A stretch of DNA of 64,000 nucleotides from Lentisphaeria bacterium. GTDB lineage: Bacteria; Verrucomicrobiota; Lentisphaeria; Victivallales; UBA1829. Made by a program: the position numbers and the translations under genes. Positions 986 through 59,463 of this stretch are shown piece after piece (the stretch's first letter is position 1; every line of letters starts with the position of its first letter). Under the pieces are notes generated by a model. That model made no database searches. It saw only the letters and a list, made by a program, of their open reading frames with translations, and was not told where the DNA came from. Location of the stretch: NCBI GenBank assembly GCA_017503375.1, contig JAFVTF010000071.1:3036-67035 (forward strand), given 5' to 3'.

Positions 986-1789
986 TTAGTTTATATCTTC
1001 ATTACCATGTTCAAACATCCATTTGCGAAAATATTCCGGAGCTTCCAATCCGGTATCGGCGATCGTATTGGAACAGACGATCACACCTTTGATTTTACCG
1101 TCCAGAAGGAAACGGTAATATAAATCCAGCTGGAATTTCATTTCATCGGAAGTGAGCGGTTTGCAATCTCCGTAACTGTAAAGATAACATCCGGCGTAAT
1201 GTTCTTTTCCGGGAGTCATGCTGATGATCCGGTTCAGATTGTTTTCTGCTTGAGCCAACTGTTCATTGTTCCAGGACCAGAAGGTGATTCCGTCGACAGC
1301 ATCCAGCCACGGAGTGTAATCAATGTCAAAAAGTCCTGCATAATAAACCAGCCACAACGATAATCTGCGGGGCGCATTGTGGAGCCGTTCAGCGATTCTG
1401 TGAAGTTCATCCGGCGTCAGACGGGCATCTTTTGTTGCCGGGCGGAACAGATCATCCAGAACACCGCCGACGATGTTCTGATATTTTTCTGCCTGCCGCA
1501 GAACTTCAGCCAGATCATCTCCGTTTTTGTCATTGCGTTTCGATGAAGCATCTCCCAGAACGGACCATATTACTTTTTTGAAATTTTTGAGTTTTTCAGA
1601 TTCTTCGTCAAAGGGAGGTTCAGGAATTCCATTGAATACAACACGGCAGCAGTTCGGAATCCCGAGATATTCCGCTCCTTCCCATGGTCCCATTCTGTTT
1701 TCTCCGGGAATTTTATATGCCGCTGCATCTCCGGTATGATGGCATCCTGCATGGTGTCCCCATATCCAGAAATGATCTTTTAGCTTCAT
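986..1789 (-). CDS. conserved hypothetical protein of an uncharacterised family (distant paralog at 45962..46984)
   Basis: 267-aa ORF with an ATG start, co-directional with and tightly packed between GH127 and the DUF1559 gene. It shares collinear motifs with the 45962..46984 product: HFWIWG/NLWVWG, GAEYLGIPN/GADYFGAKN, QNIVGGVLDD/PNIVGAMCDD, DGITFWSWN/DVINLWFWN, KIKGVIVCSN/GIVEGVVILGD. Confidence 0.7.
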   Translation of the reverse strand: MKLKDHFWIWGHHAGCHHTGDAAAYKIPGENRMGPWEGAEYLGIPNCCRVVFNGIPEPPFDEESEKLKNFKKVIWSVLGDASSKRNDKNGDDLAEVLRQAEKYQNIVGGVLDDLFRPATKDARLTPDELHRIAERLHNAPRRLSLWLVYYAGLFDIDYTPWLDAVDGITFWSWNNEQLAQAENNLNRIISMTPGKEHYAGCYLYSYGDCKPLTSDEMKFQLDLYYRFLLDGKIKGVIVCSNTIADTGLEAPEYFRKWMFEHGNEDIN

Positions 1790-1885
1790 GTGAAAACTCC
1801 TGTAAGTGTTAATTTAACATACCATAATATAATATGTCGCAGCTGCAATGTCAAATCCTTTTCAGAAAAAGTCCGGAAACAGAGA

Positions 1886-3733
1886 TTATTTTCTCCGTAT
1901 CCAGACAGCCATATTCGTTGCCCCGCGGTTTTGCCATAAAGCGTATGGAACAGCGTAAAATTCTGTTTCCGTATATTCCGGCGGATTCGTGTGGTAAAGT
2001 TCTTCTCCGGCAAATGTTTCTCTGACCGCTTTCCCTTTGATAACGGGCGTTCCTTCCGGCAGGTCGCAATGATTTTGAATGACTTCCAGCGGCTCTTTCG
2101 TATCCAGAATCAATTCCCGGACAGGTCCTGTCTGGTCTATTTCCTCCAATGCATAAACCACCGGCCCCCGCATGATTGCGATTCTTCCAGTATTTGTCGT
2201 GACGCGCGGATTTGCATAAATCCATTCCGCAGGCATATCCAGATTTAATTCCAAAACATCTCCGGCGTTCCACTGTCTGACAATATGAAGATTCGTGATT
2301 GCTTCTCCATTGAGTTTGGCGTTCCATTTTCTGCACCAGCCCGGAATCCGGCATTTCAGAGAAAATTCACTTTCAGAAACGATCTTTATAATGATTTTTC
2401 CATCGTAAGGATAATTTCCTTCAATATCAATTTTGACATTTTTACTATTGAGATTCAGTGTTGCATGATTGGATACCGGGATATTCAATGTGATTTCATT
2501 TTCTTCATCATTGACGGAATAAATGAATTTTCCCAGCTGAGGCAGGAATCTTGAAAAACTGGTCGGACAGCAGGAGCAGTTGAACCAGGGCTGCCGTTCT
2601 TTGGAAACGACCGACGGTTTCAGGTTCTCATCCACTTCAAGATAATTGGTATAGAAGAATTTGTTTCCATCCAGACTGATTCCCGAAAGAATTCCATTAT
2701 AAATGCAGCGTTCCACTGTATCAAGATATTTTGTGTTGCCTGTAATATTGAACATACGGATTGCAAAAAGAGCAAAGCCCATTGCCGCACAGCTCTCTGC
2801 ATACATGAGTCCTCCATTGGAAAGATCATAATCCACAGAGAATTTTTCCTGAAAGAAGTAAGAACCGATTCCGCCGGTCAGATACATCTGCTTTGAAACG
2901 ATATGATCGTGAAGCCGTTCGCAGACTGCAAGAAGCGATTCATCCTGATCGATTTCCGCAAGATCCGCCATGCCGCAGCAAAGATAGATCTGTCTGACCG
3001 CATGCCCGGTCCCGGCTGTCTGTTCTCTGACTGGCACATCTGCCTGCGCATATTTCCGTGGAGCAGGATCTTTTTCCACTTCTTCATAATAGTTCGGTTC
3101 CGTTCCCCGGTCATTGATAAAATATTGAAGGAGTTTCCGGTACTCTTCTTTTTTGGTCAGACGGTAAAGTTTTGCCAGAGCAAGTTCGATCTCTTCGTGT
3201 CCGGGCCAGCCGCGGCGTTTGCCTTCCTCAAAACCGAAAACGGAGCAGAGATAATCCGCATAACGGCAGAGACAATCCAGCAGTTTTGTTTTCCCAAGCG
3301 CCTGATACCCTGCAACGGCAGCTTCGATCAGGTGTCCGGCGCAATATAATTCATGGGCATAGGAAAGATGTTTGAACCGTTCTTCCGGCTTGACAACAGT
3401 GAAATAAACATTGAGATACCCGTCCGGCTGCTGAGCAGAACAGATGAGATCAACCCATTCATCGTATATTTTTTCCAATGCCGGATCCGGATTGAGGGCG
3501 AGAGCGTAAGCCATTCCTTCCAGAACTTTTGCCACATCAGAATCCCAGAAAATATGCGGGCGGTTCGGCATCCCTTCTTTCCAGTTAAGAGCAAATGCCT
3601 GGATCCGTCCGGTGTCGATGGTTTGTTTGATACACTGTGGGATGGTTGCGGCGTAACAATTTTTCTGGCGCGGTGCCATGACGGAGTCTTTCAGCAAGAC
3701 TGATTTCAGTTCCGGTGCAGTAAATTTTTTCAT
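1886..3733 (-). CDS. glycoside hydrolase family 127 (beta-L-arabinofuranosidase-like, DUF1680)
   Basis: 615 aa. The family-typical motifs are present: HELYCAGHLIEAAVA, MYAESCAAMG and the Cys cluster WFNCSCCPTSFSRF (the GH127 Cys/Zn site). A GGAGGGAG RBS sits upstream of the ATG. Confidence 0.85.
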   Translation of the reverse strand: MKKFTAPELKSVLLKDSVMAPRQKNCYAATIPQCIKQTIDTGRIQAFALNWKEGMPNRPHIFWDSDVAKVLEGMAYALALNPDPALEKIYDEWVDLICSAQQPDGYLNVYFTVVKPEERFKHLSYAHELYCAGHLIEAAVAGYQALGKTKLLDCLCRYADYLCSVFGFEEGKRRGWPGHEEIELALAKLYRLTKKEEYRKLLQYFINDRGTEPNYYEEVEKDPAPRKYAQADVPVREQTAGTGHAVRQIYLCCGMADLAEIDQDESLLAVCERLHDHIVSKQMYLTGGIGSYFFQEKFSVDYDLSNGGLMYAESCAAMGFALFAIRMFNITGNTKYLDTVERCIYNGILSGISLDGNKFFYTNYLEVDENLKPSVVSKERQPWFNCSCCPTSFSRFLPQLGKFIYSVNDEENEITLNIPVSNHATLNLNSKNVKIDIEGNYPYDGKIIIKIVSESEFSLKCRIPGWCRKWNAKLNGEAITNLHIVRQWNAGDVLELNLDMPAEWIYANPRVTTNTGRIAIMRGPVVYALEEIDQTGPVRELILDTKEPLEVIQNHCDLPEGTPVIKGKAVRETFAGEELYHTNPPEYTETEFYAVPYALWQNRGATNMAVWIRRK

Positions 3734-53978: not shown

Positions 53979-55532
53979 ATGGCAAATCAATTGAAAATCG
54001 GATGGGGAAAACGTTCCATCGCACCGGATGCAGCCACGCCCATTCCCGGACAGTTCAATATGCGGGTATCTCTGGGCAGTTTCACGCCGGTGCTTGCAAA
54101 CGCTCTTGTGCTGGAAAATGGCGATGATGCAGTGATCTTTGTTTCCTGCGATGCTGTTTCAATTTCTGTTGAAATTCTCAAGAAAGCGCAGGCTTTTCTG
54201 GCAGAAGATATTCCCGGATTCCCCGTGGACAAGATCATTCTGAACTCCACTCATACCCATGCCGGACCGGGTGACAGAGATATGTCTCCGTATCCCCACA
54301 GCATAGATGTTCTCGGTCCGGAAGATGTAAAAAATTTCATCGGACGTCAGATTGCTGATGCGGTCAAAGAGGCATGGGAAAAACGTGCCCCCGGTGCAAT
54401 TTCCTACGGCTACGGATTTGCCGTTACCGGACACAGCCGCCGGGTAATTTACAGCGATGACTACGGTCTGCGCGGAAATGGAAAGCCCGGTCTTGCCATC
54501 AATGGTCATGGCGTAATGTACGGCAATACCAATGATGACAAGTTTGAAAGCTATGAAGCCGGAACCGATGCTTTCATCAACCTGCTTTATACCTTCGATG
54601 CCAACGGAAAACTTTCCGGAGCGATCGTCAACGTGCCGTGTCCCTCCCAAACAAACGAACATGCGTGGGTGTTCCATGCAAGTTTCTGGCACAATGTCCG
54701 GGAAAAACTTACTGCCAAGTATGGTGATATCGGAGTTGTCGGACAGGCTGCGGCTGCAGGGGACCTCTCTCCCCGTCAGCTTCATTACAGAGAAGCTGAA
54801 GCCCGCCGTTACCGTTTGAAGTATAAAGATAAGATCGATGCTTATATGAAGAACCCGATGTCTTTGCCCGGTGCTGAAAACTGGACCCCGGAACAGCGTC
54901 GTGTACAGAGTGAATATGAAGCGATTGAACAAATGCGTGCTGAAGATATTTCCAGCCGTATTGTTGCAGCATTCGATGAAGTGCTGAGTTGGGCTGATCA
55001 GGAAAAATTCTCTGCACCCGTTCTCAAGCATGAAGTCCGCACTGCTGAACTTTCACGCCGCATGTTCCCGAAAGAAATGATGGAAGAGGAAAAACGGAAT
55101 CTCGAAACCTTCATGGCTGAAGAGTATCTTACAGAGGGCGATAAGTGGGATGTCCTTTATAACAACTCTATTCTTCACAGTAAACGGTTCCGCTGCGGCG
55201 GTGTTGTTTCCCGTTATGAAATCCAGGAAAAACAGCCGACGATCACTTCTGATATCCATGTCGTCCGGATCGGAGATATTGCGTTCGCAACCAACCGGTT
55301 TGAACTTTACATGGATTATCAGCACAGGATTCAGGCACGCAGTCCCTTTGAACAGACCTTTATCGTTCAGCTTGTGACCGGACCCAATGGTATCGGCAGT
55401 TATCTGGCAACGGAACGCGGGGAAAAGAATAAAGGGTACAGCGCATCTCCGTACTGCAATCAGGTTTCCCCGAAAGGCGGGCAGGAACTGGTGGAAGAAA
55501 CGTTGAAAATCCTTAACGAGGTAAAAGAATAA
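53979..55532 (+). CDS. neutral/alkaline-ceramidase-N-terminal-domain-like hydrolase, no signal peptide (tandem copy 2)
   Basis: It starts MANQLKIGWGKRSIAPDAATPIPGQF with no hydrophobic leader. ILNSTHTHAGP is present. It is collinear with copy 1 (FINLLYTFD, NVPCPSQTNE, HASFWHNVREKLTAKYG). Confidence 0.65.
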   Translation: MANQLKIGWGKRSIAPDAATPIPGQFNMRVSLGSFTPVLANALVLENGDDAVIFVSCDAVSISVEILKKAQAFLAEDIPGFPVDKIILNSTHTHAGPGDRDMSPYPHSIDVLGPEDVKNFIGRQIADAVKEAWEKRAPGAISYGYGFAVTGHSRRVIYSDDYGLRGNGKPGLAINGHGVMYGNTNDDKFESYEAGTDAFINLLYTFDANGKLSGAIVNVPCPSQTNEHAWVFHASFWHNVREKLTAKYGDIGVVGQAAAAGDLSPRQLHYREAEARRYRLKYKDKIDAYMKNPMSLPGAENWTPEQRRVQSEYEAIEQMRAEDISSRIVAAFDEVLSWADQEKFSAPVLKHEVRTAELSRRMFPKEMMEEEKRNLETFMAEEYLTEGDKWDVLYNNSILHSKRFRCGGVVSRYEIQEKQPTITSDIHVVRIGDIAFATNRFELYMDYQHRIQARSPFEQTFIVQLVTGPNGIGSYLATERGEKNKGYSASPYCNQVSPKGGQELVEETLKILNEVKE

Positions 55533-56388: not shown

Positions 56389-56429
56389 AAAAAAAAACTG
56401 CTGCAAATTTTTCGTTGCAGCAGTTTTTT
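56389..56429. terminator. bidirectional terminator serving rho on the minus strand
   Basis: A9, then stem CTGCTGCAA (56398..56406) / TTGCAGCAG (56415..56423), then T6. On the minus strand the hairpin lies 18 nt after the rho stop and is followed by U9. Confidence 0.7.
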
Positions 56430-56441
56430 GTATCAGAATTC

Positions 56442-58580
56442 TTACTGTTGAAGTGTCAGAAGAAATTCGATGTTTGTCTTGATCTTCTTGAGTTTTCCAA
56501 CAATGAGTTCCATTGCTTCCACCGGAGGCACTCCGTTCATGGCTTTCCGGAGAGTCCAAATCCGCTGTAATTCGTCCGGATGCAGCAGCAATTCTTCTTT
56601 TCTGGTACCGGAACTTTCAATATCAATTGCAGGATAAACACGCTTGTCAACGAGACGTCTGTCAAGATGCAGTTCCATGTTTCCGGTACCTTTGAATTCT
56701 TCAAAGATAACTTCATCCATACGGCTTCCGGTATCGATCAGAGCTGTTGCAAGAATGGTCAGACTTCCATGCCCCTCAATATTTCTTGCGGCACCGAAGA
56801 AACGTTTCGGTTTATGGAGTGCATTGGAATCCACACCGCCGGAGAGAATTTTCCCGCTGTGGGGAGCCAGTGTGTTATAGGCTCTTGCCAGACGGGTGAT
56901 GGAGTCCAGAAGAATCACAACATCTTTTCCGTATTCCACCATGCGTTTTGCTTTTTCGATGACCATTTCAGCAACCTGAACGTGGCGTTCGGGCGGTTCG
57001 TCAAAAGTTGAACTGACAACTTCGGCATCGACGACCCGTTTCATATCGGTAACTTCTTCGGGGCGTTCGTCAATAAGAAGAACGATCAAATGAACTTCCG
57101 GATTATTCTTGCGGATGGCATTTGCCATCTTCTGCATGAGAACCGTTTTCCCGGTTCTGGGAGGAGCAACGATCAAACCGCGTTGTCCTTTTCCGATGGG
57201 AGTGACCAAATCTACGACACGCATGGAAATTTCATCGGGAGCGTGTTCCATCATGAGCCGTTCAGTGGGGAAATACGGTGTCAAGCTGGCAAACGGAATG
57301 ATATTGCGTTTCTTTTCCGGCGGTTCGTTGTTGATCGTATCAATTTTCATGATGGCAAAGAACCGTTCTTTTTCTCTGGGAGGACGGATCTGACCGCGGA
57401 CAAAGTCGCCTGTTTTCAGAGAGAATTTACGGATTTGAGCCTGATGGACATAAATATCTTCAGAGGACGGCATATAGCTGTAAGCTGCGGAACGGAGAAA
57501 TCCGTAGCCATCGGGAAGAATTTCCAGAAAACCGCTGCCGTAAACGGCTCCGCTGCGTTCGGTTGTTACCCGCAGGATTTCAAAGACAAGACGGGATTTT
57601 TCCAATGCGCCCAGTCCTTCGATTCCCAGATTGCGCGCCATATCACTCAATTCCATCATGGATTTTTCCTGGAGTTCAGTGATATCAATATCCGGAGCTT
57701 TTTCAAAGACCTGCGGCTGTTCGGGATCGACCGGCACCGTTCCATCAGCGGGAACCATCTGCGGAGGCATTTGCGGCTGCATCTGACGGGGCTGCATGTT
57801 GTTGTAATGCTGCATCATCCGGTCAGGATTCTGGTTCATCTGACGGTAACGGTTATTGTTTCCTCCATTATTGAAACGCCCGTTATTGTTATTATTGCGG
57901 TTATTATTCCGGTTGTTGTTATTGTTCCGGTTATTCTGGAAGTGACCGTTCCGGTTGTTCTGATTCTGCCGCTGCGGGGGTCTTTCGGAATATTCTCTGA
58001 AAAGGATGGCCGCAGAATCATCAATCATTTGAGGTTTCTGCTGCTGAGCTGCCGGCGCCGCCGGGGCAGGGGAATCATCAAAATCATTTTCGGCATCATC
58101 GGAGTGGTAGACGGAGATTTGTTCCTGCTGCTGTTGCTTTTCCGCTTCGTAGCGCAGAATTTCCTGTTGTTCCTGAGCTTCTTTCAGCATGATCTGCTGT
58201 TCTCTCTGTTCGAGAATTTCAGCCCGTTCTTCGCTGTTGAGATTGGCTGAGAGTTCGGGAAGTCTGTCGGGAATTGTCTGGCGTCTGTGTGCCGGAGCCG
58301 TTGCCGGGACGGAATCTTCAACAGAAACGACCAGCTGATCCGGGCGGATATCTTCCGGGATTGATATATCATTGATATCTTCAGCGGGAGCGGTTCTCTT
58401 ACGTCTCTGAGGGACTGTTTTTTCTTCTTCAGCGGGAAGAGCCTGCACATCAGCTGCTGGTGTTCTGCGTGGTCTGCCGCGTTTAGGTTTTTCGGGGGCG
58501 GCTGGCATCGCTGTTTCAGCAGGCGCAGCGTTTTCTTCGGGGATGATGTTCTGGTTGAGTTCGTTTTCTTCGTTAGCCAT
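56442..58580 (-). CDS. rho: transcription termination factor Rho with a ~300-aa N-terminal extension
   Basis: The canonical Rho core runs from [23 protein letters not shown]. It includes [14 protein letters not shown] (the CSD-like RNA-binding domain), Walker [13 protein letters not shown] and the C-terminal [18 protein letters not shown]. The start is set at MANEENE (ATG 58580, GGAGAG RBS) rather than the track start 58598. Confidence 0.9.
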
Positions 58581-58665
58581 TCGTCTCTCCATTTTCATTT
58601 AGAAAAGGGGGGTGATACTGTTCCGTTGTGTCATAAAGAAAATAATGGAATTTTCTGAAAGGATG

Positions 58666-59259
58666 TCAACTGAACAGGAATACCTTGTTGTTTATATATT
58701 TACATTGTTGTTCCAATTTTTCCATGGATTCATCGTTGATGATACCGTAATCTGCGAGTTCCAGTTTTTTATCAGCAGAAAATTGAGCGGTACATCTCCG
58801 GGCAGATTCTTCCGGGGACCATCCCCGTTCAGAAAGGCGTCTCATCTGAATTTCAGGTGGACTCCATACTGCGATTGTTCCGGTTAATCCGATGTTCCAT
58901 TTCCGTTCAAAGAGCAAGGGGATTTCAAAGACTGCCACAGAATTTTCCGGCAGTTGTCTGAAAAATAAGTCAGCCTGTTCTGTCATGGCCGGATACAATT
59001 GACCTTCCAGCCAGCTCAATTCTGACGGATCAGAAAAAACGATTTCAGCGATTTTCTGTTTATCTGTAGTTCCATCAGATTTCAGAGCAGAATTTCCCCA
59101 ACGTTCCCGGAGCTTCTCATGAAAGACACCTCCGGGTGTGTTGTGTATGGATGCACATAACGAATCTGCATCCAGCGTATAGCGTCCCAAATCGGAAAAA
59201 AGTTTCAGAACTGTTGATTTTCCGCATCCGGGAGCACCTGTCAATCCATAAACTCTCAT
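58666..59259 (-). CDS. coaE: dephospho-CoA kinase
   Basis: MRVYGLTGAPGCGKST (P-loop) and IPLLFE are present. ATG 59259 is preferred. The track start 59277 is a TTG that would add 6 residues. Confidence 0.8.
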   Translation of the reverse strand: MRVYGLTGAPGCGKSTVLKLFSDLGRYTLDADSLCASIHNTPGGVFHEKLRERWGNSALKSDGTTDKQKIAEIVFSDPSELSWLEGQLYPAMTEQADLFFRQLPENSVAVFEIPLLFERKWNIGLTGTIAVWSPPEIQMRRLSERGWSPEESARRCTAQFSADKKLELADYGIINDESMEKLEQQCKYINNKVFLFS

Positions 59260-59463
59260 GGTCGGCAGCTCCATCAATTTTAATGAAAATCTGTTTGCCC
59301 GTCAGGACTTTCAGCAAGTGAATTGCAAAGGTAGATAAGTAAAAACCGAAAAAAAACGGAAAAATATCTAAAAAAAACTGCAAACTGACAGGACAGTTTC
59401 GTTAAACGATGCTATATTATACACGCATTTTGAAAAAAGTCAAATCGTAAGGAGTATTTTTTT

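Follow-up and report, generated by a model that had tools for sequence, protein, structure and literature searches.

We describe the transcription terminator Rho encoded in a 64,000-nucleotide stretch of DNA from a Lentisphaeria bacterium (contig JAFVTF010000071.1; the whole stretch is hereafter the window, and positions refer to it), in which a canonical Rho core is preceded by a 298-residue N-terminal arm. The arm recurs in related Rho proteins, with a long acidic part followed by a cationic tract rich in Asn, Gln and Arg close to the core. On balance, its composition and its resemblance to characterized Rho proteins lead us to favour a lineage-specific disordered appendage of the Type 2a kind that would act in RNA binding or condensation. 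A preliminary description of the same DNA had read the tract as prion-like; to us, an appendage that binds RNA or forms droplets seems a better match for the arm than a prion switch.

The rho coding sequence occupies 56442..58580 on the minus strand and encodes 712 amino acids from the ATG at 58580, within a mechanically called open reading frame of 718 amino acids (56442..58598, minus strand). In the numbering of the longer frame, Pfam places Rho_N at residues 308–349, Rho_RNA_bind at 355–428 and ATP-synt_ab at 459–663. The TIGR00767 'rho' equivalog model covers residues 305–717 with 671.9 bits against a cutoff of 509, which identifies the protein as Rho, and the Rho model NF006886 scores 663 bits. 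Residues 299–708 of the 712-residue form align as one unbroken stretch to residues 2–414 of E. coli Rho (phmmer match to the PDB, 1e-158), and Rho_N and Rho_RNA_bind are separated by 5 residues, compared with 4 in E. coli. The core (56445..57686, minus strand) comprises the N-terminal helix bundle, the OB-fold RNA-binding domain and the RecA-type ATPase, with no insertion. Because it aligns unbroken to E. coli Rho from residue 299, the additional residues lie wholly N-terminal to the core rather than within it. Domain searches and this alignment thereby bear out the extension of about 300 residues reported in the preliminary description, and the peptides quoted there are all found where it placed them. 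There is a single copy of rho in the window. We conclude that the gene encodes the ordinary housekeeping Rho of a gut-type, Victivallales-type Lentisphaeria bacterium, and that it is probably essential.

The true start is most likely the ATG at 58580, which is also where the preliminary description ended the feature, because a Shine–Dalgarno-like GGAGAG (58585..58590, minus strand; read from the sequence) lies 4 nt 5′ of it and because the two Met codons further upstream are not shared by close relatives. The MANEE start, MANEEN in the window protein, is kept in relatives. Public entries for related Rho proteins are nevertheless often short, at 412–633 amino acids. One such relative (P0009; 577 amino acids at NCBI) begins at an internal Met, whereas the frame on its contig (L085) is open upstream (L085 2560–3000, the counterpart of 58200–58580 in the window) and encodes the conserved MANEE N-terminus, the basic hook and the short motifs described below. 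Because of this open frame, we interpret the short annotations in this family as start-site miscalls, by which the extension is systematically cut off.

Substitution patterns point in the same direction. In a codon alignment that combined the window gene with its orthologs from L001, L082, L083, L084 and L085, and in which the synonymous rate (dS) is saturated at about 1–1.4, the ratio of nonsynonymous to synonymous substitution rates (dN/dS) across the six orthologous loci was 0.18 for the extension and 0.017 for the core. Within the extension it was lowest for a helical segment (residues 111–160; 0.064) and reached 0.19 in the hook, 0.21 in the tract and 0.23 in the region upstream of the NCBI start annotated in P0009. 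We conclude from these codon comparisons that the extension is translated and under selection.

The arm (57687..58580, minus strand), or 'initial region' preceding Rho_N, is mostly predicted to be disordered, with a re-implemented FoldIndex below zero along its entire length. Its net charge is −14, and every segment is acidic apart from the tract (+9) and the hook (+5). Its sequence is that of a charge-segregated polyampholyte, in which a long acidic N-terminal part gives way to a cationic Asn/Gln/Arg/aromatic tract adjoining the core. A PDB search with the extension alone gave no match (best E-value 0.29). An AlphaFold2 model of the complete protein, built from 64 close homologs, was poor even for the core, with a mean predicted local distance difference test score (pLDDT) of 54.5 and a predicted template modelling score of 0.39, and pLDDT was below 50 through the extension apart from a helix at residues 116–155, the only part of the model that we used.

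The same charge layout is found throughout the family. The best 120 homologs among 5.8 billion proteins were all Rho, most of them 650–830 amino acids long, and the few with a named source were labelled Lentisphaeria, Lentisphaerae or Victivallales. Among the matches listed from species-representative genomes, the nearest relatives belong to the Victivallaceae. A contig scan with the full protein brought up Rho of many phyla through generic Rho-core peptides, and at least two to three Victivallaceae or Lentisphaeria loci listed there were used as outgroups. We assembled a set of 110 homologs with an extension of at least 200 residues and a core identity of 80–98%, in which extension length has a median of 291 amino acids (interquartile range 283–316). 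The Asn-richest 60-residue segment in these proteins has median contents of 24 Asn, 9 Arg, 0 Lys and 5 aromatic residues. In 98% of them this segment has a net positive charge, and in 99% the part of the arm that precedes it has a net negative one. Across the family this Asn/Arg/aromatic tract sits 40–70 residues ahead of the core, and the junction into the Rho helix bundle is conserved. The initial regions of other lineages in the Planctomycetes–Verrucomicrobia–Chlamydiae (PVC) group differ in composition, being RG-rich, P/A-rich or made of RD repeats. In one Verrucomicrobiota metagenome-assembled genome (L007, ~1700–3080) an open frame of about 439 amino acids, 25% Pro and 16% Ala, precedes the Rho core and has long (RD)n and PDRG repeats at its end; if its first Met is the true start, it exceeds the 352-residue maximum reported by Moreira et al. 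2024.

The tract itself, delimited by composition, charge and conservation, comprises the 72 residues 203–274 (57759..57974, minus strand; 57753..57977 in the preliminary description, which had recognized it as N/Q-rich). It contains 28 Asn, 12 Gln, 10 Arg, no Lys, 1 Asp and 4 aromatic residues, and Arg breaks it every 3–8 residues, so that the longest run free of Lys, Arg, Asp and Glu extends over 10 residues in the tract as a whole and over 8 in its Asn core. That core (residues 206–243; 57852..57965, minus strand) has 24 Asn in 38 residues, or 63%, against a background of 4.7% in the other long open reading frames of the window (binomial tail 7e-23). The maximum number of Asn per 60 residues is 28 in Rho and at most 11 in any other window frame of at least 250 amino acids. 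The tract had been called unusually Asn-pure, a description that does not hold up beside the 67% Asn of the C. botulinum Rho core peptide, to which it is comparable. Towards its end lies a Met/Gln/Pro-rich tail with 8 Met in 30 residues (246–275; 57756..57845, minus strand; read from the sequence).

At the DNA level, the imperfect AAT/AAC repeat noted previously is an accurate description: the Asn codons of the core are a mixture of 13 AAC and 11 AAT, no more than 5 AAY codons and no more than 3 identical codons follow one another, and Tandem Repeats Finder reports a single 12-nt unit in 2.2 copies. The tract DNA is an imperfect repeat and contains no long slippery microsatellite. Close species differ in the tract by in-frame indels of 1–10 residues. 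The length polymorphism that the preliminary description proposed to look for is present within clusters of at least 90% identity (strain or species level), where almost every indel adds or removes either one Asn or Gln codon of a homopolymer run or one 7–8-residue RDNNYQx unit, and variable columns cluster in the extension (for example, 23/265 compared with 1/420 in the core). The tract grows and shrinks in frame and in small steps, with no sign of an on/off phase switch. In the clusters of two relatives (P0017 and P0019), extension residues ~150–200 carry tandem 7–8-residue RDNNYQ(R) units whose copy number varies between strains; these share a Y/Q/R/D/N grammar with the convergent YQRD(N) repeats of Lachnospiraceae Rho disordered regions (Schumbera et al. 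2023).

Several short elements punctuate the acidic part. The AT-hook-like basic motif, which includes KPKRGRPRR (residues 30–40; 58461..58493, minus strand), is conserved in relatives, and R34, G35, R36 and P37 are invariant in an alignment of relatives (A1). A single [RK]GRP occurs at a median position of 35 in 83 of the 110 homologs, and the remaining 27 have instead, in the corresponding N-terminal part, a generic patch of K/R residues (for example, PRAPRTPR or ERKTRAK). The preliminary description had singled out RGRP as an AT-hook-type core, and it does fit the sequence definition: like the canonical hook (HMGA-type; PF02178), it has a GRP core flanked by K/R and Pro (KPKRGRPRR here, PKRRGRPPK in relatives), the same string as in multi-hook repeats. 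It differs from the canonical hook in being a single copy on an RNA helicase, in falling below the Pfam threshold and in being replaced by a basic patch in about a quarter of homologs. With the Pfam AT_hook model, the window peptide gave no hit and the PKRRGRPPKN of relatives gave 12.6 bits against a cutoff of 17.4, which a single 13-residue copy rarely reaches. We searched a profile of the pre-tract part of the extension against 1.84 billion representative sequences; its only full-length matches were N-termini of this Lentisphaeria-type Rho, and its other matches were multi-AT-hook proteins aligned at the hook positions only, among them P0129 (Pfam AT_hook, 2.4e-8). AT-hooks are not confined to DNA, as some canonical and extended ones bind RNA (PMC4615771).

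After RGRP, the most conserved element of the extension is a short motif with the core PDxLVV (residues 74–92; 58305..58361, minus strand), in which, across A1, D81 is invariant and P80, V84 and V85 each reach at least 90% conservation. A PDxLVV-like motif, without predicted structure, lies near position 86 in at least 68 of the 110 homologs. Between the two, a second basic patch, QRRKRT (residues 58–63; 58392..58409, minus strand; read from the sequence), is partly conserved in close relatives. The Gln/Glu-rich helix proposed in the preliminary description corresponds to the helix that AlphaFold2 predicts at residues 116–155 (58116..58235, minus strand) with pLDDT 82–86. It is limited to the subclade of the window protein (P0001–P0008), together with P0009 and its full-length frame in L085; other clades have an acidic YxPxPEP block in its place. 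By inspection, its hydrophobic residues (I122, L123, I130, M131, L132, A135, I141, L142 and Y144) form no clean heptad, leaving a coiled coil unsupported, and with a net charge of about −6 it is too acidic for a single-α-helix (E/K) domain. A conserved block at residues 187–201 (57978..58022, minus strand), seen in the alignment of close relatives and containing a short helix at 191–195 in the AlphaFold2 model, immediately precedes the tract.

Rho proteins with add-on regions have been surveyed systematically (Moreira et al. 2024, PMC11347177). In that classification Type 2a Rho has an 'initial region' before the N-terminal domain, a feature of 18.7% of Rho sequences that reaches 352 amino acids; an initial or 2d region is present in almost half of the PVC-group sequences, two rho genes occur in 30 PVC genomes, and QN, APA and RxR motifs are described. 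The Rho of the window, with 298 residues before its core and no insertion between Rho_N and Rho_RNA_bind, belongs to Type 2a. The preliminary description was therefore right to place the tract ahead of the entire core, but the layout is a known one. The Type 2a Rho proteins of Xanthomonas oryzae and X. campestris likewise have a region ahead of Rho_N that is predicted to be disordered and has QN-rich, APA-like and Arg-containing segments, which in X. oryzae include a 95-residue, QN-rich, PLAAC-positive segment (PMC11347177). Type 2a Rho with Q/N-rich, PLAAC-positive initial regions is thus an already published class. The main text of the survey does not name Lentisphaeria or mention an AT-hook, and it reports no alignable conservation between distant species, whereas the present family has alignable conserved motifs (RGRP and PDxLVV) and a conserved polarity of acidic arm and cationic tract. 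Our literature search found no mention of Lentisphaeria Rho or of an AT-hook in Rho, and nothing joining Rho, intrinsic disorder and Lentisphaer*. Relative to the literature searched, the near-invariant AT-hook-type motif, the PDxLVV motif and the strictly conserved, clade-wide polarity in which the arm is acidic and the Asn/Arg tract cationic are new.

The closest parallel in layout is the intrinsically disordered region (IDR) of BtRho from Bacteroides thetaiotaomicron (Krypotou et al. 2023, 2026), in which a charged subdomain containing short conserved motifs is followed by a conserved block and then by a 68-residue N/Q-rich prion-like domain (PLD) with a positive motif, and which drives RNA-dependent coacervation and contains acidic autoinhibitory motifs (Krypotou et al. 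2026, PMC13269538). The arm described here shows the same succession of a charged disordered part with short conserved charged motifs, a block and then a positively charged N/Q-rich part of about 70 residues, and both lie on the RNA-binding face of Rho. However, the BtRho IDR sits between helix bundle and OB fold (Type 2b), whereas this arm precedes the helix bundle; the charged part of BtRho is K/E-rich, whereas that of the arm is rich in Glu, Asp, Gln and Pro with Arg, and the tract has Arg only; and condensation of the BtRho IDR with RNA has been demonstrated, whereas that of the present arm is a prediction. The arm thus shares the BtRho-type arrangement without detected sequence homology, and we regard it as a putative functional analogue in layout, not a homologue. 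[quoted passage not shown] These domains too are disordered, contain Arg and lie close to the primary RNA-binding site, and they shape the choice of Rut site; unlike the present arm, they are mainly insertions, rich in R, G and D, in high-GC genomes, whereas the arm is Asn-rich and the window has about 48% GC.

From composition and precedent, we infer that the arm may bind RNA, take part in condensation and exert autoinhibition. Six arms would decorate the N-terminal crown of the Rho hexamer, the location of the primary RNA-binding sites. There the Arg-studded Asn tract and the hook could add non-specific, multivalent RNA contacts and so increase RNA capture, and together with RNA they may form condensates by complex coacervation. 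The acidic part of the arm might compete with RNA intramolecularly, tuning capture or condensation. Such a module would parallel the KE-rich, conserved-block and N/Q-rich organization of the BtRho IDR, placed before the helix bundle. Several points weigh against this proposal. The mechanism rests on composition and analogy. The low AlphaFold2 confidence is weak evidence for disorder because the model is poor overall. The arm has no sequence homology to the Bacteroides IDR, its profile matches being Lentisphaeria-type Rho N-termini and generic AT-hook repeats. In BtRho the PLD alone is insufficient for RNA-driven condensation and acts as a negative modulator (PMC13269538); the Asn tract here may therefore tune condensation rather than drive it. 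Finally, the overall net charge of −14 could oppose RNA binding.

Sequences with at least 30 Gln and Asn in 80 consecutive residues are Q/N-rich by the Michelitsch–Weissman criterion, and the 80 residues from residue 203 contain 40. The tract lies within the predicted disordered region, has Phe and Tyr embedded in its 38-residue Asn core and, at 56% Gln plus Asn, would probably be positive in the PLAAC hidden Markov model on composition alone (an expectation, not a score). It could accordingly be imagined to work as in C. botulinum Rho (Pallares 2016; Yuan & Hochschild 2017), forming an amyloid that propagates itself, sequesters Rho and brings about heritable read-through across the genome. 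Both proteins have, within a disordered N-terminal part, a low-complexity segment dominated by Asn (about 63–67% in the core) with interspersed aromatics, the Asn content and aromatic spacing here resembling the C. botulinum core peptide NNNNSNFNNNSNNNSSFNNSN, and PLAAC-positive QN segments are known from other Rho initial regions. We nevertheless consider such a switch unlikely. The C. botulinum domain is an insertion within the N-terminal domain whose core is uncharged (N/S/F), whereas the tract lies ahead of that domain and is punctuated by 10 Arg in 72 residues, giving its net charge of +9; these Arg residues would line up under in-register stacking. Judged by charge-free run length, it has no uncharged segment of about 21 residues of the kind that pWALTZ takes as an amyloid core, its longest such run of 10 residues contrasting with 0 charged residues in 21 in the C. 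botulinum core. We re-implemented the PAPA scale and algorithm, so that scores are approximate, with a threshold of 0.05 combined with FoldIndex below zero. The controls Sup35 and Ure2 scored 0.10, whereas the window Rho peaked at 0.010 (residue 217, FoldIndex negative); the median of homologs was 0.007, with 6 of 121 at 0.05 or above. Sub-threshold prediction was among the outcomes that the preliminary description had named as counting against its prion reading, which is weakened because this one predictor falls short. Translation starting downstream of the tract was another, and the start in fact lies upstream. Prion-like Rho domains occur in at least eight phyla but are only sporadically conserved (Harrison 2019), whereas the tract is present clade-wide; its positive charge is kept in 98% of homologs, which suggests that selection acts on the cationic character of the tract and not on amyloid propensity. 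Moreover, B. fragilis Rho has a QN motif yet did not aggregate under the conditions tested (PMC11347177).

Among the alternatives, we place one just ahead of the prion switch, although it too is improbable: the arm may be a passive low-complexity spacer, a tolerated product of slippage or an entropic bristle that affects solubility or hydrodynamics and has no specific role in nucleic-acid binding or assembly. Strain-level indels in Asn/Gln runs and repeat units are what slippage predicts, dN/dS is about ten times higher in the extension than in the core, and PVC relatives have initial regions of quite different composition. Against this, dN/dS values of 0.18–0.21 are far below 1 at saturated dS, the short motifs are invariant, and length, charge polarity, preference for Arg over Lys and aromatic content are all conserved in the 110 homologs. 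The hook invites a further explanation, ranked below the prion switch and doubtful in our view, in which the hook, at the tip of the flexible arm, would contact AT-rich duplex DNA in its minor groove and hold Rho at the nucleoid or at AT-rich (foreign) regions. The fit to the AT-hook definition, the match to the repeat unit of bona fide multi-AT-hook proteins and the invariance of the motif in A1 are consistent with such tethering, and AT-hook-like motifs are used by bacterial xenogeneic silencers, according to PMC8476142. However, there is one hook per subunit with sub-threshold or absent Pfam matches, the generic basic patch in 27 of 110 homologs argues for charge rather than minor-groove geometry, and the substrate of Rho is RNA, which AT-hooks can also bind. 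Equally doubtful is an extended version, in which the hook would be a duplex-DNA (or structured-RNA) anchor stationing Rho hexamers on AT-rich, possibly foreign regions, and contact with nucleic acid would be needed to free the cationic tract from the acidic arm; if true, this would be a DNA-tethered terminator coupling xenogeneic silencing to Rho-dependent termination. Last comes the very remote prospect that the extension is a start-site artefact and translation begins mainly at an internal Met, either Met131 (the NCBI start in the relative) or within the Met-rich residues 246–275. Several relatives are annotated short and there are eight Met codons shortly before the core, but the region above the NCBI start has conserved amino-acid motifs as well as its dN/dS of 0.23, GGAGAG precedes the MANEE start, the frame is open in all relatives examined, and gene callers on European Nucleotide Archive (ENA) and Logan assemblies give proteins of about 700 amino acids. 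Nor do the internal Met codons have a Shine–Dalgarno-like site at a useful distance: by our own reading a lone GGAGGA lies 21 nt from Met247, and its translation, NGGN, is not conserved. An RNA-binding or condensation appendage therefore remains the reading that we prefer.

Directly upstream of rho lies coaE, encoding dephospho-CoA kinase (58666..59277, minus strand; Pfam CoaE, 3e-37), and the order methyltransferase, NUDIX, coaE, rho is retained in five related contigs (L001 and L082–L085); upstream synteny is kept among related contigs, and the downstream neighbours vary. In the window the downstream neighbour is a 517-residue frame (53979..55532, plus strand) resembling the N-terminal part of neutral/alkaline ceramidase at a sub-threshold 28 bits (cutoff 32). 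A sigma-70-like promoter match, TTGACA-16-CATTAT, overlaps the end of coaE (58642..58669, minus strand; 10/12 in a consensus scan, a pattern match only), and a scan found an intrinsic-terminator-like hairpin with a 15-bp stem and a T run 13 nt past the rho stop (56392..56429, minus strand). No Rfam family reached its gathering score anywhere in the 64-kb window. The mRNA of the extension (57687–58580) is A-rich (32%) and has a C/G ratio of 1.27, compared with 1.03 in the core (56445–57686), which could be a by-product of Asn, Gln and Pro codons or a weak rut-like feature for rho autoregulation; we judged the skew too modest to support a rut-like role. The 90%-identity cluster of one relative (P0050, with a 715-residue Rho as its representative) also contains dephospho-CoA kinase entries of 195–198 amino acids, a mixture probably due to a fused coaE–rho gene call linking the neighbours.

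Add-ons to Rho are studied as a means of retuning a universal terminator, by three known routes, namely phase separation in Bacteroides, a prion in C. botulinum and Rut-site selection in mycobacteria. The Lentisphaeria arm reveals no new principle among these, and public annotations often cut it off. The family nonetheless forms a natural series of about 110 sequences with alignable motifs and a strict charge polarity, which could help to separate the sequence rules of RNA-driven condensation from those of amyloid formation.

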